64,000 bases of DNA from Escherichia coli (GTDB lineage Bacteria; Pseudomonadota; Gammaproteobacteria; Enterobacterales; Enterobacteriaceae): NCBI GenBank assembly GCA_025336685.1, contig GCA_025336685.1_4717.1, one strand, 5' to 3'. The notes under the pieces were generated by a model that was not told the origin of the DNA, did no database searches, and worked only from the letters and a program-made list of their open reading frames with translations. Of the stretch, positions 2,771 to 61,841 are shown piece after piece (the first letter of the stretch is position 1; every line of letters starts with the position of its first letter). Made by a program: the position numbers and the translations under genes.

Positions 2771-2922
2771 CAATGTAACAGTAAAACTTTACTGATGTTG
2801 GTTATTATTTGAAGCATAGGGCTTCACCCAGGAGTACCATCCCTGTAAGTCGTTTGTCCTCTCCTGGTTAACTGTCGTTCTCTCACAGTGCTCGACAGAC
2901 CAAAAATGCTCAAGCCTCATAG

Positions 2923-2951
2923 CCTCCTCTGGGAATGGAACCCAGAGGAGG
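2923..2951. terminator. GC-rich hairpin (CCTCCTCTGGG / CCCAGAGGAGG, 11-bp stem, 7-nt loop)
   Basis: Perfect inverted repeat read directly; lies between convergent genes 1526..2770 (+) and 2964..3284 (-). No strong U-run, so terminator function is tentative. Confidence 0.4.
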
Positions 2952-2963
2952 ACTATGTTTGCT

Positions 2964-3284
2964 TTAAAATTCAATGCGACCCTTAGTTGTAAACAATACA
3001 CCTCTTTGCCAACAGAAAAGATCCTCCGATTGAGCGCAAACACGAATACCCGCATCGAATAGATGTTTTGTTCTGGCGCTTAAACAATCTGGATCTTCTA
3101 CATACAACAGAAGACGTTGGCATTTATTTTGAATGCGTTCGACAAGGATGTTCTTATCGCTTAAAATAAAATGCGCGTTATCTGTTAAGTTGTCGTCGGT
3201 TTCCAGCTGCCCGACAAGTTTGATTAAAATACGTAATTGCTCAAGTGTGTCATGATCAAATGAATCGCCCATGGCGTACCTCAA
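2964..3284 (-). CDS. small hypothetical protein (about 100 aa; start may be the second Met)
   Basis: ORF track; immediately downstream of the terminase gene on the same strand and followed by the 2923..2951 hairpin. Confidence 0.35.
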   Translation of the reverse strand: MRYAMGDSFDHDTLEQLRILIKLVGQLETDDNLTDNAHFILSDKNILVERIQNKCQRLLLYVEDPDCLSARTKHLFDAGIRVCAQSEDLFCWQRGVLFTTKGRIEF

Positions 3285-3331
3285 CGTTATACGTCGTTAG
3301 TATTATAATACGTTATAGTCTCCCTGCCGGT

Positions 3332-5584
3332 TTAACGGGGAGTCTGCGGACTACTCTTAGAAACCTCCGGTCGGTATTGGCCCATCGTCATCCACGCGTT
3401 ACGAGAAATATTCCGTTCGTTCGAAGAGCGACTTATTTGACGATACGTATTCGCTCGTTCCTCCCTTGCTTTCGTAATCATCGCGTCGATAGAGACAGAC
3501 GCTGAATCCTCCCCGCGTATTTTTCCTTTATAGGTAAGAAGCTCCGCCTCCAACCGATCCAAGATAAGGCCATTGGTTTCGGTCTTAAGCAGCTCATAGA
3601 TTTCAGCAACGCGTTGACGTAGCTTCGCCTGCTGTTGGTTAAGATAAGCTTCATACGGATCTATTTCACCCGTCACAGATGCCGGTAAACGACTCATGAC
3701 TTTAAGCGGATCGATACCGTAATGAATCTGTTTCTTAGCACGCTTGATGAACCACATCGCTAACATCCATGCGAACGTCATGTCATCGTGCATTCCATCC
3801 TGGTGGTCGACACGCCCATCTTTGATAACCAATCCGAGAATCTCGGAACACAGCATCTTATCGCGTAACTGCCCGCGGGTTTCTACGATACCTTCCATCA
3901 AGATGTCGGAGTACAACTCCATGCGTTTGCGTGCATCCGTCGTGAAGCCCAAGTGTCGTTTACGCTGAGCGTACCAACTTTCATCACGCATGCTCAACGG
4001 CAGTTTCAGGTCTTCGAACATTGCTGGATTATCAGCATGTCTGTCCACAATCGTGTTGTATACACGTTTGAATACGTCGATGCCTGCTTGCCGCAAGAAC
4101 TCTTCAATTGCGTCTAACAACATGATTGCACTGCTCTTACGTTCGGGAATCAACGTAACGTTCTTATAGCGCATCATGAAGTTGGCCATCCAACGAGCAA
4201 AAGAAAGCAGACTCAGTTTATTAAAACGTCCTGTCGCAACAACTTCTGCTGTTTCCACATCCACCATCACCAAACCGATCGCGTCACGACCTATCGCGTC
4301 ACTGGTATCTAAACCAGCAACCACCTTGTTGTTCTGCATGTATGTCTCGATTTGACCTCGAGGTATATACCAGTTAATGCAGTAGCCTTCAGGTGAGATC
4401 TCGATATGGTCGATTTCACGTTGTCCTGCCATGATCATCTCAACCATCTCAGCGGTTAACGGGCTTTCTGCTGAACCGTTGGTCCAAATGTTCATGTAGT
4501 CACGGTCTTTCTGAAGCTTATCACCTTCCGTTTCGTTCATGGTTTTTGCTAACCATTCGTCACTGAATCCTAATTGAGCATGGTTCCATTGTGCCCCGAT
4601 CCTGACGGTCGCCTTGCTAAGTTCACACGGTACGTTGTTCAATACCGTCTGATGCAGATGCTTTTCGTTACGGCAGTCAAAGAAACTTTCAGAAAACGGT
4701 GCGGAACGCATGAAAACTTCATAAGCCCATTTACCCTCGCGTTTATCCAATTCACCTGCTGTTGTCGTATAGATGATACTTGTCAGGTCGCCGTTGCTTA
4801 ATGCTTCATCGCGTGCTGCACCCATCGCACCGATACCGGCAGGGACAATGATTTCGATGTATTTCGTAAACGCGGTTTCGTCGCTATGGAATATCGGGGT
4901 TGTTAGACCACGACCGATGTTTGTTGCTTGTTTCTTATCCGAACGTGGAATCTTTACCGATAACTTGTTCTTGAAACGTGTGTAGGTTACGTTCTCTTTG
5001 TTCGATGAATCACGGCTATCCAGCGTCCAGAGATACGCAGGCAGTAGATCACGTATACTACGCACGTCTTCTACTGTTTTCGTACGGGCATCACCGTCTT
5101 TTGTTAACTGAATAACCTCGGTGTTTCGACTACGAACATAGGTTAGATAGCAGAACAATCCTAACATGGTCATGGATTTACCCGTCTGACGTATCTGTAT
5201 CTGATACCAGTTCGTTCGGGTAAATATCCCCCAAAGCATCGGAATGTTACCGCGGTTAGCACGGAACGAGATCTTGTTATCACCCGCCTTAGCCGGAACC
5301 CGCATCACTTCACGGAAGAAGTACCATGGGTTAAGGTAACACTCCGCACTGATCATCTGAATCTGTTCTGACGTCAAATTCGGTGCGTGGGGATCAACAC
5401 CGATTAATCTTGGGTTTAATAGCGCCATGAAAAACGCAGAGTTTCGGACACCGAATTCACGACGATACAAGATCGCTAAATCACGCCAACTTGTGTTTGT
5501 TGTTTCCCAGTGTGGAACAGCTTGAGGAAAATAATCCCAATCTTCCTCAAACAAGATGATTTTCTTCGGATCGACAATCGACAT
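3332..5584 (-). CDS. terL: terminase large subunit (ATPase plus nuclease)
   Basis: 750 aa; Walker A-like IRQTGKS near N-terminus as in T4 gp17-type terminases; C-terminal acidic nuclease-like segment (DHQDGMHDDMTFAWMLAMW); GGAGGAG Shine-Dalgarno 6 nt before ATG. Confidence 0.85.
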   Translation of the reverse strand: MSIVDPKKIILFEEDWDYFPQAVPHWETTNTSWRDLAILYRREFGVRNSAFFMALLNPRLIGVDPHAPNLTSEQIQMISAECYLNPWYFFREVMRVPAKAGDNKISFRANRGNIPMLWGIFTRTNWYQIQIRQTGKSMTMLGLFCYLTYVRSRNTEVIQLTKDGDARTKTVEDVRSIRDLLPAYLWTLDSRDSSNKENVTYTRFKNKLSVKIPRSDKKQATNIGRGLTTPIFHSDETAFTKYIEIIVPAGIGAMGAARDEALSNGDLTSIIYTTTAGELDKREGKWAYEVFMRSAPFSESFFDCRNEKHLHQTVLNNVPCELSKATVRIGAQWNHAQLGFSDEWLAKTMNETEGDKLQKDRDYMNIWTNGSAESPLTAEMVEMIMAGQREIDHIEISPEGYCINWYIPRGQIETYMQNNKVVAGLDTSDAIGRDAIGLVMVDVETAEVVATGRFNKLSLLSFARWMANFMMRYKNVTLIPERKSSAIMLLDAIEEFLRQAGIDVFKRVYNTIVDRHADNPAMFEDLKLPLSMRDESWYAQRKRHLGFTTDARKRMELYSDILMEGIVETRGQLRDKMLCSEILGLVIKDGRVDHQDGMHDDMTFAWMLAMWFIKRAKKQIHYGIDPLKVMSRLPASVTGEIDPYEAYLNQQQAKLRQRVAEIYELLKTETNGLILDRLEAELLTYKGKIRGEDSASVSIDAMITKAREERANTYRQISRSSNERNISRNAWMTMGQYRPEVSKSSPQTPR

Positions 5585-5596
5585 ATAAACTCCTCC

Positions 5597-5623
5597 GATG
5601 GAGGGTGCCGAGCACCCTCCATC
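5597..5623 (-). promoter_or_regulatory. stable hairpin (11-bp stem GATGGAGGGTG / CACCCTCCATC) abutting the terminase RBS
   Basis: Perfect inverted repeat; on the minus-strand transcript it sits directly 5' of the GGAGGAG SD of terL, between the 579 aa gene and terL. Confidence 0.4.
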
Positions 5624-5634
5624 GTTGTATTACC

Positions 5635-7374
5635 TTATGCGACTTTACTAATAACGACTGCGGTGATACCAAGATGTAGGTCAACGCCATTCTGTACTTT
5701 AATCCAGCGGATATACAGGTTAGCGTTATCCTGTCCCGTACCACCTGGGACGTTATTGTTCTTATTCCATTGTGAGATTTCGAAACGTTTCTGCACGTTA
5801 GGACCAACCATGATTTCAAAATGGGTCGGTTCTGGCGCTTTCGATTCCGTCTTCTCAAGATAGAGCGGATGTGTCGCGTAGTAAAGCTGGTTCAACCATT
5901 CACCCAGATCTGAGTGTTTGTTCGTCAAGTCAACATACGCGTTACCAGCAACATCGTAAGTAAACAACGCTTTCGTGTTACGGCCATACACGTCCGTTGT
6001 CGTCGGCGTTGTTTGCGAACTAAATGTTACTGTCCAGTAATCACCGGATGTTGCCGAACCTGCTTGCAGTAACGTCATTCGAATAGTCTGCGTATGACGT
6101 ACGCGTTTGTAAACGGTAGGATCGACTTCATCTAACCAGATATTGTACGCAAATTCCTGGGGTTGTCCGTATTTCTTCGGATTAAACTCAGGACTGTTCA
6201 GTGCCAATTGTACTTTATCGGTTACGTTGTAGTATCGCTCACGGTCAACGTTGTACAACCAGAATACCAGCTCATATCCCACTGCATCAGATACCCATTG
6301 CGGATAGCAGAACAGTTTAACACTGTATGCCCCTTTCGCTTCTTTAGAAACAACTGTATAAGGGACACTAATATGTTTCACTGCACCAGGTAACGCGTAG
6401 GATGTGTCCTCATCGTCGTCCAGGTAGTAGTGTAACGCCAGCGGATGTTTGCTGTTGATGACCTGGGACGTGAAGACGTTAAGACCATCCAATACAACCT
6501 TGTTACCAGTAACCGGCCAATGTTTAATGGAGCCGTCACTGTAAGTGACTTCAGCCTGAAGGTCAACGGAGTCCAGGTTGACGTTGATCGGCAACTCAAG
6601 CAGTTTGGTATCGCTGCTGCTCAGCCACGTTGACTTCAGTCGTACCCCGTCTTCCAGAATATATTTAATACCCTGGTCTGGAGTGCGTACGTAGTCAGTG
6701 ATACGAACGATCATGCGCTTCATGGATAACGGCTGCGGACCGTCACCATAACCCACTACCATCACCTGCTCAAAATCTTCGACGGGTTTAATGCAGTAAC
6801 CTTCGCGGGGTGCCCAGATGGCTTTATTCGTTCCGTCTTTGTAAGCGATAAGCTGACACGGAATGAAGTCACTGATCTTATTTCCGCTGTTGTCATACAT
6901 TGCACTGATGATTTCGCCTTTGGCGCTAATATCAGAACCACGGAACACCGCGATACGTCGAATATCCGAACCATGTAGATGGAAACGACGATCGATATTC
7001 ATCGTAGCTGGGATCGTGTTCGTATTAATCAATACACGCCATGTGTCGTACGACCACGTCGGATCGATACCTTCAAAGGTTGTCGTCCCATCGCCCTGAC
7101 CGTCGAACGGAGCAGATAGCTGACCGATAAGTTTAAGGGTACTTAGCTTCGTACGATCATCTACAGCGATAACACGGTATACCGCATTCGTATCCCAGTC
7201 TTCAACCTTATCATCCACGTTGGGAACATAAAGTTTCCAGTCTTCTTCAACGCCATTATAGATCTCTTTATACGCATAGGTGGTATAGCGTCTGTCGAGA
7301 TCCTGAATAGCGAGTTTATCCGGATGCTGTTGTGCGTAAAGCACCGGATTGGTAATTTCTCTTCCCATTATCAC
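5635..7374 (-). CDS. hypothetical protein, putative virion structural protein (579 aa)
   Basis: Long ORF in the same operon as terminase and an 864 aa ORF (4-nt overlap with the upstream gene); no recognised catalytic motif. Confidence 0.5.
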   Translation of the reverse strand: MIMGREITNPVLYAQQHPDKLAIQDLDRRYTTYAYKEIYNGVEEDWKLYVPNVDDKVEDWDTNAVYRVIAVDDRTKLSTLKLIGQLSAPFDGQGDGTTTFEGIDPTWSYDTWRVLINTNTIPATMNIDRRFHLHGSDIRRIAVFRGSDISAKGEIISAMYDNSGNKISDFIPCQLIAYKDGTNKAIWAPREGYCIKPVEDFEQVMVVGYGDGPQPLSMKRMIVRITDYVRTPDQGIKYILEDGVRLKSTWLSSSDTKLLELPINVNLDSVDLQAEVTYSDGSIKHWPVTGNKVVLDGLNVFTSQVINSKHPLALHYYLDDDEDTSYALPGAVKHISVPYTVVSKEAKGAYSVKLFCYPQWVSDAVGYELVFWLYNVDRERYYNVTDKVQLALNSPEFNPKKYGQPQEFAYNIWLDEVDPTVYKRVRHTQTIRMTLLQAGSATSGDYWTVTFSSQTTPTTTDVYGRNTKALFTYDVAGNAYVDLTNKHSDLGEWLNQLYYATHPLYLEKTESKAPEPTHFEIMVGPNVQKRFEISQWNKNNNVPGGTGQDNANLYIRWIKVQNGVDLHLGITAVVISKVA

Positions 7375-10893: not shown

Positions 10894-10974
10894 ATGTAAT
10901 TCCTTTATTACGGCATATAAGAAAACGGGTTAAGCACACAGATTTACGCATAATTGTAATTTTTTACGTTATGC

Positions 10975-11010
10975 CTATGACATTGTGTCACGTGTGCAAT
11001 TATGTCATAC
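10975..11010 (+). promoter_or_regulatory. inverted repeat TATGACAT-N18-ATGTCATA with central CACGTG, 27 nt upstream of sheath ATG
   Basis: Read directly in the divergent intergenic region 10894..11036. Confidence 0.3.
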
Positions 11011-11036
11011 AATTTCCTTAAATTAAGGAGAGTTCC

Positions 11037-14015: not shown

Positions 14016-14040
14016 CGTAAAAAAAAAGCATATTAACCTC

Positions 14041-14090
14041 CCTTCCTTCCCCGGCCTTGATGGCTAGGGAAGGAAGGTTTATGGTTTATT
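14041..14090. terminator. bidirectional intrinsic terminator (stem CCTTCCTTCCC / GGGAAGGAAGG, loop CGGCCTTGATGGCTA, then TTTATGGTTTATTT; A9 run on the other side)
   Basis: Read directly; sits between convergent genes 13125..14015 (+) and 14090..14629 (-). Confidence 0.75.
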
Positions 14091-14629: not shown

Positions 14630-15090
14630 TACTCAAACTCCTTATTCCAAAACTCGATTAACGAATCGAGCTGTTCCTTACTGGTTATCTCACCTCCCTT
14701 AACAAAATGAAATCGTTCTTGAATCGCGATCTTTTCAAGGATATCGGTAAGCAAATGACGATGACAGAAATTTCCTGCAGGACAATAACACCCTAACACC
14801 ATAACCGGATGGGAGAATAAAGACAACCATTCCGATGTATGATCAACAAAGCTTTTACGCATGAGTGCGTAGTAGCCTGCGGTATATTCATCCTCGGTTA
14901 ACGTTTTTGATTTGATTCCTGTAACAAGTTCCCATGAAGGTGCGTAGAGCGGGTTACCTGTTTTCACCGTTGTGTCCAGTAGGAACGCCCGTGTGTCTGA
15001 AAGCCAACGATATTTAGCTAATTGAAGGGTGTATAAAAACATAGCACTAACCCCCAAAGGATAAAAATAAAACCTTAACATAACCACCAC
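14629..15090 (-). CDS. DUF488-like protein
   Basis: 153 aa; C-terminal motif VMVLGCYCPAGNFCHRHLLTDIL matches the remembered LLCxC...CHR..L signature of DUF488; upstream APSWEL resembles the family's APS.eL segment. Recalled from memory, not searched. Confidence 0.5.
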   Translation of the reverse strand: MVVMLRFYFYPLGVSAMFLYTLQLAKYRWLSDTRAFLLDTTVKTGNPLYAPSWELVTGIKSKTLTEDEYTAGYYALMRKSFVDHTSEWLSLFSHPVMVLGCYCPAGNFCHRHLLTDILEKIAIQERFHFVKGGEITSKEQLDSLIEFWNKEFE

Positions 15091-15147
15091 CGCAACCCCA
15101 TTACAGGGCTACGGTGGGGTCATACAGAGAGACGTGTTATGTTACAA

Positions 15148-16560: not shown

Positions 16561-16662
16561 CTTTTAAATTCCTACTTAACAATAAAGTTTATATACGGCG
16601 TATGTATCCGTAGAATAATGAGTTCTGGTAAGATCTTACATCAAAATGACGGCATAAAAAGT

Positions 16663-16690
16663 ACCTCCTTACCCATGTGGGTAAGGAGGT
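16663..16690 (-). terminator. hairpin terminator (ACCTCCTTACC / GGTAAGGAGGT) followed on minus strand by T5
   Basis: Read directly; downstream of the minus-strand gene 16842..17651, inside a 280-nt non-coding gap. Confidence 0.55.
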
Positions 16691-16841
16691 TCGTCCATCA
16701 CGACGGAAGGACGTTATGTGACGCGGTGTCCATAACGGCCCTGGTAGCAGGCATTAAAAAGATAACAAAAGGATGTAAGTTGAGCTAAACCACCTAAATA
16801 CGGTAACGATTACTTCCGTACACAATATAACGTAACATCTT

Positions 16842-21005: not shown

Positions 21006-21040
21006 GAGCAGGGGCATGAAGCCCCCTGCTCTTATTTAGC
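21006..21040 (-). terminator. hairpin terminator (GAGCAGGGGC ... GCCCCCTGCTC) with T-rich tail on minus strand
   Basis: Read directly; immediately downstream of the minus-strand gene 21032..22255. Confidence 0.5.
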
Positions 21041-35534: not shown

Positions 35535-35545
35535 TCATTAGTTAA

Positions 35546-35575
35546 GGGCGGGAGATTCCCGCCCTCTTCTTGAGG
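35546..35575 (+). terminator. intrinsic terminator (GGGCGGGA / TCCCGCCC hairpin then TCTTCTTG)
   Basis: Read directly, 12 nt after the stop of 31827..35534. Confidence 0.55.
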
Positions 35576-37724: not shown

Positions 37725-37740
37725 TATTCACTGCATAAAC

Positions 37741-37772
37741 CCCTCTCCCTTCCCTGATGGGTTGGGAGAGGG
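37741..37772. terminator. hairpin (CCCTCTCCC / GGGAGAGGG, loop TTCCCTGATGGGTT) between convergent genes
   Basis: Read directly; paralogous to the hairpin at 50601..50633. Confidence 0.5.
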
Positions 37773-37778
37773 AATATG

Positions 37779-38846
37779 TTAACCTAATGTCACCGTAGGT
37801 AAATCAGGATAAAGTTTCTTCAAGCCTGCCATCGTGGTGGTAGTTGTATAATTCTTACCCATCACAGCAAGAGATGCATATTTCTTACTGCGGGAGAAAA
37901 GGGAATAAAACCCACTGGATGTTTCCATCCACATCGTGAGGAGTTCTGCGTCGTTACCGTGATAGTTCGTTTTACCCCATCCAGGTTTAAACGCATCGGC
38001 AAAATCAATTAAACGCGATGCTTCGGCGTCGTATTCTTTAAGGGTAATGTACGATGGGATACGGTAGTTACGAAACAACAACGTAATGAGTTCAGGGACA
38101 ACGCTACGAGCGCGTTCAGCCGTAATGAGTTCGGTGATAACGGCAGCCGTACGGAAATCGCCGTTGAGGCCAACGCTGCTTAACGATTCCGCTAAAGTGG
38201 TTGCCATCGCCACTTTATCCTCCGCTGACCCAGAGTCATACAGACTACGTACATCGATATAGTTGCCTGCTAATGCGGCTTGACGAATCAACGACGTGAC
38301 AACCGTCCGGTTCGTCTTATAGTCGTTGTAGCTGAATTCGGTTCGCGTTTTCCCTTGATCGTCGAGATACCGATCGACAATCGTTGATAGTTTATAATAC
38401 TCATCGCCCGACATCAGACTATCGAGGAGCTTAACGTTTCCATCTTTATCGATAAGCTTCCCTAACGCACCATTGGATTGTTGGTTAATGGTGCTGTAAA
38501 TCTGATCTTTTACTTGCGATAGGATGTTATCAGTCGACGATATATTCAGACCAGTAACATCTTTGATCTTATTCATCAACGCGTTTTCATTCAGGGAGAT
38601 TTTGCCTCCGCTGATATCGATGAAAGAATTAAGATCGCTTATGGAAATCAGGTTTCCTGTTAACGCCGATAATGTACTATTGATACTGTTCGTAATACTG
38701 CTACGAAAACTGGTTAACGCATCCGCGGCCGAAACAGCGGTACCGCTAACCGCTTTAAGGAGCGTGTCGCGCCCTGTCGAAAAATCGCTGGTGATGGTTT
38801 TGATCTTGGACGTATCTATACTCGGCAGTTTGTCGTAAAGACTCAT
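37779..38846 (-). CDS. hypothetical protein (about 355 aa)
   Basis: ORF track gives 38897 as start, but that extension runs through the 38886..38911 hairpin; ATG at 38846 has an AGGAGG SD 5 nt upstream. Confidence 0.5.
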   Translation of the reverse strand: MSLYDKLPSIDTSKIKTITSDFSTGRDTLLKAVSGTAVSAADALTSFRSSITNSINSTLSALTGNLISISDLNSFIDISGGKISLNENALMNKIKDVTGLNISSTDNILSQVKDQIYSTINQQSNGALGKLIDKDGNVKLLDSLMSGDEYYKLSTIVDRYLDDQGKTRTEFSYNDYKTNRTVVTSLIRQAALAGNYIDVRSLYDSGSAEDKVAMATTLAESLSSVGLNGDFRTAAVITELITAERARSVVPELITLLFRNYRIPSYITLKEYDAEASRLIDFADAFKPGWGKTNYHGNDAELLTMWMETSSGFYSLFSRSKKYASLAVMGKNYTTTTTMAGLKKLYPDLPTVTLG

Positions 38847-38885
38847 CACGTCCTCCTGAAAAAGAAAAAAGAAATACGGCATAAA

Positions 38886-38911
38886 GCCTACCCACACAAT
38901 GGTGGGTAGGC
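38886..38911 (-). terminator. hairpin (GCCTACCCAC / GTGGGTAGGC) followed on minus strand by a T-rich run
   Basis: Read directly; downstream of minus gene 38929..39486. Confidence 0.5.
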
Positions 38912-38928
38912 TAAGATCAACATCGATG

Positions 38929-45964: not shown

Positions 45965-46016
45965 ACCCACCCTACTACCCCGTTAAGGGCGGTAGGGTGG
46001 GATAAGGTTTATTTGC
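45965..46016. terminator. bidirectional terminator (CCCACCCTAC / GTAGGGTGGG then ATAAGGTTTATTT)
   Basis: Read directly, between convergent genes. Confidence 0.55.
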
Positions 46017-49965: not shown

Positions 49966-50594
49966 TTATGGCTGTAACACGCATGACGCCAAGTCCCGGT
50001 GCGGTCGGGGTATTCACAGTATCCGCGCCGTTCACCGTTGGTGCGTCAACGCTTTATACCGTCACAGCGTTGCGTAGATTCAGTGAAGTTATTGGTAGCG
50101 GAATCGATCTATTTAAGGAACTGTACGAACCGTTATCGATAGACAAATCCACATTCGATGCGCATCTCGAAGCGAATGCTTATCTCGTTACGCTGCAACC
50201 GGATTACGGTGCGCCCGTACTGGTACCTGATACGTATATCACGTCGTACCCAAAGAACGATTCGTTGCGGTATCGTCGCATTATTCTGGGTATCGATTTC
50301 GGGCCTCTTCCTCCAGGTCTTGACCTTTCGTATTTAACAACGATATTGAAAGGTAAGGCCAGTGATATTCTTGGTGTCGAACCTGAAGTTAAAATAATGG
50401 AAATCACTCTCGATGATACCGTTACTCAGGAACAACATCAGATAAACGAAGCCCGTCGTCAGGCTGCGATAAAAGAGCGAGATACCATTTACGCGCGCTG
50501 TGAAACGCAAGAGAAGCAGATAACAGCTTTACTTGCAACCCAAAAGCAACTTATCAAATTGCTTCAGGACGCCGGAATCAATCCAACACCTTAA
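49962..50594 (+). CDS. hypothetical protein (210 aa)
   Basis: ORF track; followed by hairpin terminator. Confidence 0.5.
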   Translation: MIMAVTRMTPSPGAVGVFTVSAPFTVGASTLYTVTALRRFSEVIGSGIDLFKELYEPLSIDKSTFDAHLEANAYLVTLQPDYGAPVLVPDTYITSYPKNDSLRYRRIILGIDFGPLPPGLDLSYLTTILKGKASDILGVEPEVKIMEITLDDTVTQEQHQINEARRQAAIKERDTIYARCETQEKQITALLATQKQLIKLLQDAGINPTP

Positions 50595-50600
50595 CATATT

Positions 50601-50640
50601 CCCTCCTCCTTCCCATGTTGGGTTGGAGGAGGGTTATGCC
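50601..50640 (+). terminator. hairpin (CCCTCCTCC / GGAGGAGGG, loop TTCCCATGTTGGGTT) after plus gene
   Basis: Read directly; paralog of 37741..37772. Confidence 0.5.
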
Positions 50641-54104: not shown

Positions 54105-54110
54105 TCATGG

Positions 54111-54140
54111 AGCCTGTCCTTCGGGGCAGGCTTTTATGCT
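54111..54140 (+). terminator. rho-independent terminator (9-bp stem, UUCG tetraloop, then TTTTATGCTGTT)
   Basis: AGCCTGTCC-TTCG-GGGCAGGCT followed by a T-run, 7 nt after the stop codon. Confidence 0.8.
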
Positions 54141-54334: not shown

Positions 54335-54748
54335 ATGTCTGCATTAGTGTATGACGAGAAATCGTCGAGGCCCCCGTCTTCACGAGGGCCAACACCTATG
54401 CGCGACTATTTACCATCTACGAAACAAAGGGTTATAAACATGAGCAATTTGAATGTTGAATTTACTTCAACAACGCCCGTCATGAATGGCGTTGGTACTG
54501 AAACTAAGATCGTATTAGAACCCATCCCGGGGTTACGTGATCTCGGTGATTTTTACCAACTGATGCCACGTATACGTAACGCCTTAAACAGTATCGATCT
54601 TGATTCTGATAAAGATTTCCAACACGATACAGAAAATACCGATCATGTGTTGCTACCATCAGGGATCGGAAAATTCACCTACACGCAAACATTGAAAGCC
54701 TCCGATGGTGAAATCCGTCGTTTTATTGTTGAAGTAGAAAGCGCATAA
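54335..54748 (+). CDS. hypothetical protein (137 aa)
   Basis: ORF track; followed by hairpin 54753..54784. Confidence 0.45.
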   Translation: MSALVYDEKSSRPPSSRGPTPMRDYLPSTKQRVINMSNLNVEFTSTTPVMNGVGTETKIVLEPIPGLRDLGDFYQLMPRIRNALNSIDLDSDKDFQHDTENTDHVLLPSGIGKFTYTQTLKASDGEIRRFIVEVESA

Positions 54749-54752
54749 AAAC

Positions 54753-54784
54753 CATCCTCCCAACCCGTAAGGGAAGGGAGGATG
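54753..54784. terminator. hairpin (CATCCTCCC ... GGGAGGATG with inner CCC-GTAA-GGG) between convergent genes
   Basis: Read directly; T5 on the minus-strand side. Confidence 0.5.
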
Positions 54785-54801
54785 AAATATGCCGTTATAT
54801 G

Positions 54802-61766: not shown

Positions 61767-61789
61767 AACAAAAAAGAAATACAACATAG

Positions 61790-61841
61790 CCTCCTTCCCC
61801 GGCCTTGGTGGCTAGGGAAGGAGGATTATAGTTTATTTATT
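61790..61841. terminator. bidirectional intrinsic terminator (CCTCCTTCCC / GGGAAGGAGG, loop CGGCCTTGGTGGCTA, then ATTATAGTTTATTTATT)
   Basis: Read directly; near-duplicate of the 14041..14090 element, including the loop and T-rich tail. Confidence 0.75.

Follow-up and report, generated by a model that had tools for sequence, protein, structure and literature searches.

A stable and mostly read-through hairpin separates a virion protein gene from the terminase gene in Goslar-like jumbo phages

What is the role of a very stable hairpin that fills the short gap between a structural gene and terL, the gene of the large terminase subunit? The question was raised by a 64-kb stretch of DNA (the whole stretch analysed, hereafter called the window), which on its sequence is that of a Goslar-like nucleus-forming jumbo phage, or chimallivirus. 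The 600 bases around the hairpin are 96.5% identical to Escherichia phage Goslar and had no other match in the phage collection, and the terL product is 99.6% identical to Goslar gp222. The gene upstream, which we call gp221-like, ends in a UAA stop codon (5637-5635, minus strand), and 50 nt separate the two genes, with the hairpin inside the gap. On the minus strand the gap and its borders read UAA-GGUAAUACAA-CGAUGGAGGGUGC-UCG-GCACCCUCCAUCG-GAGGAG-UUUAU-AUG, and the features of the locus are collected in Table 1. TerL proteins of the Goslar type were also observed in deposits under Salmonella enterica, Shigella flexneri and E. coli isolate assemblies, on contigs of ~235-244 kb. This suggests that such deposits are whole phage genomes co-sequenced with bacterial isolates, via a carrier state or contamination.

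Table 1. Coordinates of the features discussed, numbered along the window
Feature	Position	Strand	Details	Basis
Upstream cistron, homologue of the virion structural protein Goslar gp221 / phiKZ gp26	5635..7374	-		phrog_3430, E 4e-155; Goslar annotation
A/U-rich single-stranded spacer	5625..5634	-	GGUAAUACAA, 10 nt, from stop codon to hairpin	sequence
Hairpin 5' arm	5612..5624	-	CGAUGGAGGGUGC, purine-rich, SD-like GGAGG inside	folding
Hairpin loop	5609..5611	-	UCG, 3 nt	folding
Hairpin 3' arm	5596..5608	-	GCACCCUCCAUCG, anti-SD-like CCUCC inside	folding
terL Shine-Dalgarno sequence (SD)	5590..5596	-	GGAGGAG, 5 nt before AUG	sequence
terL (terminase large subunit)	3332..5584	-	750 aa; AUG at 5584-5582	PHROGs phrog_2, E 1.6e-38
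Canonical bidirectional terminator closing the terL unit	2912..2964		CAUA-CCUCCUCUGGG...CCCAGAGGAGG-UAUG	between convergent genes
Candidate late-promoter core	11006..11009	-	TATG, then A	by analogy with phiKZ late promoters
Terminators at convergent junctions	2912-2964, 14035-14086, 37733-37779, 45966-46001, 50594-50639, 54743-54792, 61780-61833			
Further canonical terminators	15079-15124, 16646-16701, 38885-38912, 54106-54138			

The original prediction had described a perfect 11-bp hairpin, GAUGGAGGGUG...CACCCUCCAUC, before GGAGGAG. The hairpin is real and its sequence is as described, but its size had been underestimated: in the minus-strand RNA the stem consists of 13 perfect Watson-Crick pairs, nine of them G-C (5596-5624), and its outermost pair takes up the first G of the SD. 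With an energy of -24.7 kcal/mol it is the lowest among 345 hairpins on both strands of the whole window. The 81-nt context gave a folding z of -5.47, and none of 200 shuffles folded equally well. Stems of at least 13 bp were absent from all of 100 dinucleotide shuffles of the whole window, and stems of at least 11 bp were present in 10 of these 100. The stem starts 10 nt after the gp221-like stop codon and ends only 11 nt from the terL AUG. The absence of a U-run directly 3' of the stem, also predicted, was borne out, as GAGGAG and then UUUAU come next. An outer CAUA/UAUG helix appears in the predicted fold, set apart from the 13-bp stem by large internal loops.

A scan of the window with Rfam 15 gave nothing at the gathering threshold. 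The best matches below threshold were to traJ_5 (19.9 bits, threshold 50) and FinP (17.2 bits, threshold 45); kinship with traJ/FinP was rejected, the match being a generic one to a hairpin. Allowing up to two mismatches, we found no second copy of the arm sequence in the window beyond chance. A repeated or mobile element was likewise rejected, with a stem sequence that is unique in the window and a base composition that runs on without a break.

Conservation was assessed in a close set of nine Goslar-like genomes, drawn from IMG/VR and metagenomes, and in an enlarged set of 30 loci, obtained after contigs with other TerL alleles were added. Among the nine genomes not one change was observed over the 26 stem positions, where ~13 were expected (P ~1e-6); the flanking genes carry ~0.5 changes per third-codon position, the loop two changes over its three positions, and the remaining 21 bases of the gap a single change. 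This strongly suggests that the stem is under purifying selection. In the enlarged set, the 5' arm is identical in 29/29 hairpin-bearing relatives, and the sole stem change is a G>A in the 3' arm, at the loop-closing position, in two loci (L044 and L046). The loop occurs in eight variants (UCG, CCG, UCA, CCA, CGG, CUA, CGA and CAA). Outside the loop, the gap varies only in the 10-nt spacer (G>A, A>U and a 1-nt insertion), and the segment from SD to AUG is invariant in 30/30 loci. A bona fide bidirectional terminator (2923-2951) served as a control, and its stem is equally invariant, with the loop flipped in one genome; in contrast, the adjacent gap between terL and gp223 varies freely among the relatives. 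In the Goslar clade the stem is frozen in sequence and does not co-vary, and it may have a sequence-specific reader.

The one locus without a hairpin, L008, lies on the metagenome contig ERZ1643250 NODE-25 (2985-2995). It carries a clean 24-nt deletion between two GGAGG direct repeats, equivalent to 5597-5620 of the window, which leaves the SD and the segment to the AUG intact, although the deletion may be an assembly artefact. Since L008 is nested in the clade, 2% from Goslar, and the outgroup L007, 10% diverged, retains the stem, the deletion is derived. It follows from this genome that the hairpin is dispensable, at least in the L008 background.

A protein search identified a sister clade of 15 loci whose TerL is 67% identical; in the searched collections, no TerL was found between 67% and 41% identity. 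Its gap is laid out as stop, 12 nt, CGGGAGGCUGGCU-GAAA-GGCCGGUCUCCCG, AUA, AGGAGA and AUG, with a stem that is also of 13 bp, has the purine arm first and adjoins the SD. Because MAFFT aligned the GGAGG cores across the clades but placed the 3' arms one column off, the two clades were compared by hand and by separate folds of each strand. The GGAGG/CUCC core is common to both, and the other bases of the helix differ yet still pair. Three pairs of the sister-clade stem are G.U, and the only two substitutions seen in this clade, both in L032, turn G.U into G-C and U-A. The common allele has a folding energy of -26.2 kcal/mol as mRNA versus -15.5 for the opposite strand. Since pairing is compensated and the mRNA strand folds better, this argues for an element that is a sense-strand RNA structure and not a DNA palindrome.

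These observations bear on a role at the level of DNA, in which the palindrome would be bound by a protein, or form a cruciform for packaging, replication or recombination. Such a role would fit a perfect palindrome directly upstream of terL. We also observed reverse-complement flips of loops, TTCCATT to AATGGAA at 2934-2940 in the terminator at 2923-2951, and UCG/CGA and CCG/CGG at 5609-5611, the loci concerned being L005, L043, L050 and L059. The flips suggest strand-switching at palindromes during replication and, along with the precise deletion between GGAGG repeats, DNA hairpins during replication. Against it stand the G.U pairs of the sister clade and the advantage of ~11 kcal/mol on its mRNA strand, the uniqueness of the stem sequence in the window, the absence of a common sequence from the equivalent hairpins of other genera, and the phiKZ version, which is a generic terminator motif recurring across the phiKZ genome. 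We consider a DNA-level role very improbable.

The comparison of the two clades also lends some support to a mainly translational function. Lying against the SD, the hairpin would reduce ribosome loading through occlusion of a standby site, or else shield the SD from the sequence before it and from ribosomes that finish translating gp221, so that TerL output is set apart from that of the structural proteins encoded on the same mRNA. The distance from hairpin to SD is 0 nt in the window and 3 nt in the sister clade, and the two stems share the GGAGG/CUCC core and differ elsewhere; the GGAGG:CCUCC core may take part in such a mechanism. L008 speaks against it, as this genome has the SD and manages without the hairpin.

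A wider view of the family was obtained from the same gene junction in other chimalliviruses. A strong hairpin (-17 to -36 kcal/mol) was observed 0-14 nt past the gp26-like stop in 13/13 chimalliviruses in which a gp26-like gene is followed by terL; these include phiKZ, PhiPA3, LucasX, Ea35-70, Proteus phage 10, PhiEaH1, PCH45, SA002, RSL2, SPLA3, a Vibrio phage and KpLz-2_45. Their stems have no common sequence. The compact layout of stop, hairpin, SD and start is found in five lineages, with gaps of 50-57 nt, and hairpins this strong occupy a minority of the co-directional gaps in the window. Across the family, it is the distance to the upstream stop that is kept and not the distance to the terL start, which ranges from 0 to 101 nt, and this weighs against a mainly translational role. 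ONT-cappable-seq mapped the phiKZ hairpin as termination site T006 (position 14840), and the late promoter P006, with its start site at 14812 just after TATG, then drives terL (PMC10914365). Late promoters of phiKZ end in TATG and the start site is the next A (PMC10914365; the tables were taken from the bioRxiv supplement of this transcriptome paper). The hairpin studied here is the positional homologue of the mapped phiKZ terminator T006.

We compared it with the terminators of these phages. The phiKZ terminator motif is BCCYCCCCHWWDGGGRRGGBYTTATKYYGT (Putzeys et al. 2024, PMC10914365), and the window is rich in hairpins of this kind, in which the 5' arm is pyrimidine-rich (CCYCC), the 3' arm purine-rich (GGRGG), and the stem followed by TATG after 0-5 nt. 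Such hairpins lie at 7/7 convergent gene junctions and at several co-directional ones, often flanked symmetrically by CATA/TATG. The terL hairpin resembles a phiKZ-type terminator in its junction, in a G+C-rich stem of the CCUCC/GGAGG type near the gp26-like stop, and in the UUAU(G) downstream. It differs in that its arms are reversed: the 5' arm, GGAGGG first, is 69% purine, as against 13-40% for the canonical hairpins of the window, and since the sequence is a palindrome the order is reversed on both strands. The TATG is also further away, at 10 nt (sense strand) or 11 nt (antisense strand) versus 0-5 nt, and on the 3' side of the hairpin it contains the terL start codon. As a side observation, TATG belongs to both kinds of signal, stop in the canonical terminators and start in the core of the phiKZ late promoter.

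A further difference from T006 is that a promoter follows there and none follows the Goslar-type hairpin. A promoter between hairpin and terL was considered and rejected, as only 11 nt are available and the TATG overlaps the start codon, so that a start site of the phiKZ style would fall inside the terL ORF. There is no TATG in the 150 nt upstream either. In likeness to a bacterial Rho-independent terminator or attenuator, the element is a stable GC-rich hairpin past a stop codon within an operon, and it has the bacterial type of stem-loop (at least 5 bp, loop of 3-8 nt). Unlike a bacterial terminator, it has no U-tract 0-2 nt from the stem on the sense strand, where GAGGAGUUUAU follows, and a scan with the intrinsic-terminator consensus picked up nothing there but the + (antisense) orientation and a minor alternative hairpin of 5 bp. 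Judging from chimallivirus biology, the transcribing enzyme is presumably the phage non-virion polymerase, working inside the phage nucleus without coupled ribosomes.

Transcription across the junction was examined in published Goslar RNA-seq data (Supplementary Table 2 of the Goslar vesicle preprint), using per-gene counts for the non-targeting control strain at 30 min post infection. The genes gp219 to gp223 are all late genes, and are 16- to 30-fold down when the nucleus cannot form. Read density was 714 per kb for gp219, 662 for gp220, 767 for gp221, 576 for terL and 650 for gp223, these being steady-state values per gene from one time point and three replicates. This uniform density over five genes suggests that gp219-gp220-gp221-terL-gp223 form one unit, which by analogy with phiKZ may be driven from the candidate late promoter listed in Table 1. 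The divergent gap between the gp219-like and tail-sheath genes (10894-11036) contains several TATG motifs, namely TATGA at 10976(+) and 11009(-), TTATATGCCGT at ~10917(-) and TTATGCC at 10969(+), and on sequence these are candidate late promoters of two structural operons.

The terL/gp221 ratio was 0.72, 0.76 and 0.77 in the three replicates, and gp223 stood at 85% of gp221. In the background of 34 co-directional junctions with no or a weak hairpin, the mean ratio was 0.93 (sd 0.12); against this the terL value of 0.75 has z = -1.44, and 9% of the background lies at or below 0.75. The ~25% lower read density of terL is indistinguishable from noise. Most transcripts read through the terL hairpin, and at most about a quarter are lost. 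At canonical co-directional hairpins with no obvious promoter behind them the ratios were 0.66, 0.66, 0.52 and 0.43 (P = 0.0009 versus background), whereas four purine-first hairpins, the terL one included, gave 0.82, 1.08, 0.85 and 0.75 (P = 0.16 versus background). Pyrimidine-first and purine-first ratios differ with P = 0.015, in small samples.

Two more purine-first hairpins between co-directional genes were observed at 35545-35565 (+) and 21006-21031 (-), one of them 6 nt ahead of the following gene's SD and the other annotated as a terminator in the Goslar record. Their downstream/upstream read densities in Goslar are 0.85 and 1.08, and both are read through. A weaker hairpin, of the type GACUCCCCG-UUAAUAC-CGGGGAG, lies over the terL stop codon (3316-3346, minus-strand RNA); it varies in the relatives, with a mismatch in the window copy and a longer stem in L007, and there is no drop in Goslar reads over it (gp223/terL = 1.13).

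An efficient intrinsic terminator, isolating terL transcriptionally as in phiKZ, would be in keeping with the positional homology to T006 and the very stable stem. It is contradicted by the RNA-seq data, in which terL and gp223 reach 75% and 85% of gp221, and by the lack of both promoter space before terL and an adjacent U-tract or UAUG, and we find this reading hardly credible. In preferring other functions to a terminator, the original prediction was right as regards an efficient one, given the missing U-tract, the departure from the phage consensus, the want of room for a terL promoter and the ratio of 0.72-0.77. It was wrong to set termination aside altogether: since the phiKZ hairpin at the same junction is mapped as T006, a terminator is not to be dismissed. 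The near-equal RNA levels also favour the translational reading, as they imply that a difference in expression must arise after transcription.

Control by RNA processing or decay was considered as well. In this reading the A/U-rich spacer or the stem itself would be cleaved by an endonuclease, after which the hairpin would shield the new 5' end of the terL message or the 3' end of the gp221 message. The A/U-rich single-stranded spacer does adjoin a stable stem. A classical (T7-type) RNase III site needs ~20 bp or more, about two helical turns, and the stem of 13 bp falls short of this. Near-uniform read density over the junction and the lack of an Rfam family match also count against processing, which we regard as improbable. 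Intercistronic hairpins that stabilise mRNA exist, for example the REP elements in malE-malF. Like them, the terL hairpin is a stable intercistronic stem-loop that could block 3' exonucleases and raise the upstream over the downstream message; unlike them, it is unique and belongs to no repeat family, and the difference in RNA between upstream and downstream genes is small and not significant.

The effect of the hairpin on terL translation was approached by modelling. In a fold of -120 to +60 the SD is largely unpaired, with only its first G in the stem. Opening the region from SD to +13 requires 10.6 kcal/mol when the hairpin is present and 9.3 after an L008-type deletion, and from these near-equal costs the hairpin is predicted not to sequester the terL ribosome-binding site. 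The predicted accessibility of the SD is a further point against the translational reading. As a translational control structure, which the original prediction had also proposed, the hairpin thus finds no support in the folds where sequestration of the SD is concerned; occlusion just 5' of the SD is conceivable, and support for the translational idea is indirect. Since the SD is not sequestered, any translational effect must come from blocking the bases just upstream of it.

If opening is extended to the 4 nt preceding the SD, the cost is 17.9 versus 11.0 kcal/mol without the hairpin, ~7 more. This places terL 55th of 59 gene starts in the window, for which the median is 9.8 kcal/mol, and speaks for the translational reading. 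So does the standby-site model, As = 15+P+D-H (Espah Borujeni et al. 2014, PMC3936740). Applied to terL, with P = 0, D = 10 and H = 13, it gives an As of ~12; by a rough fit to the quoted values, the penalty would be ~3 kcal/mol and terL initiation ~4-fold lower. Structured standby-site modules, which cut initiation several-fold to 100-fold (PMC3936740), resemble the terL hairpin in being tall and having no proximal single-stranded spacer before the SD. They differ in being synthetic E. coli 5' UTRs, whereas the terL hairpin is intercistronic and may be altered by ribosomes arriving from gp221. A freed 3' arm could, in addition, pair with the SD (CCUCCAUCGGAGG, -5.7 kcal/mol). Taken with the points for and against it given above, a mainly translational function is possible but rather unlikely.

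A pairing that encloses the hairpin was also predicted on the minus strand, between the end of the gp221-like gene, AGUCGCAUA (5635-5645, including part of the stop), and UAUG.UCGAUU (5575-5586). The sister clade has a shorter CAUAAG/UUUAUG pairing, and in both clades the CAUAA/UUAUG helix is weak. Such stop/start pairing might couple terL initiation to gp221 termination, or be due to chance. Three candidates for recoding at the junction were rejected. A bypass of the 50-nt gap like that of T4 gene 60 would need a landing codon to match the take-off GCA ahead of the stop, and there is no GCA near the AUG; there is no slippery heptamer 5-9 nt before the stem for a -1 frameshift, and no feature supports stop read-through into the 48-codon ORF that starts at 5622 in frame with gp221.

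The explanation that we favour, with a probability of about one half, is that the element is a leaky intercistronic terminator or 3'-end hairpin, which possibly also dampens terL translation. On the late polycistronic mRNA gp219-gp220-gp221-terL-gp223, the stem-loop would mark where the virion-protein block ends on its 3' side. The gap of the Goslar lineage has shrunk to 50 nt and contains no terL promoter, and the phage RNA polymerase must therefore mostly read through the hairpin. The reversed arms, GGAGG first and CCUCC second, and a UAUG/U-rich element 10 nt off would make for a weak signal. A minority of the transcripts, at most about one in four, would terminate at the stem-loop or be shortened as far as its base and shielded by it, leaving the structural genes with a little more message than the enzyme TerL. 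As a secondary effect, it is plausible that the 13-bp helix, lying directly against the SD, deprives ribosomes of a single-stranded landing surface just upstream and damps terL initiation. Since terL depends on read-through, the hairpin would have been reshaped to a leaky form in Goslar-like phages.

In itself the terL hairpin is ordinary operon punctuation with an unusual build. Chimallivirus polymerases work in a protein-walled nucleus without ribosomes, which makes it likely that the long operons of these phages are punctuated mainly by RNA hairpins. The wider significance hinges on whether a rule of arm order, hinted at by the small RNA-seq comparison, is general. In such a code, a pyrimidine-first hairpin with an adjacent UAUG would stop the phage polymerase, whereas a purine-first GGAGG...CCUCC hairpin would be transcribed through and act on the mRNA, where the SD/anti-SD look-alike lying against the true SD would set the dose of terminase. 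We hold this idea to be speculative and on balance doubtful. If true, it would mean that terminase dose is derived from a shared message in a system in which transcription and translation are physically separated. Nature offers a comparison in the phiKZ terminator and promoter versus the Goslar-like, reversed-arm and read-through hairpin, along with the natural deletion allele of L008. This comparison could reveal what stops these polymerases and how the amount of packaging enzyme is adjusted to that of the structural proteins. Practical benefits are modest and would lie in better annotation of jumbo-phage operons and possibly in insulator or attenuator parts for phage engineering.
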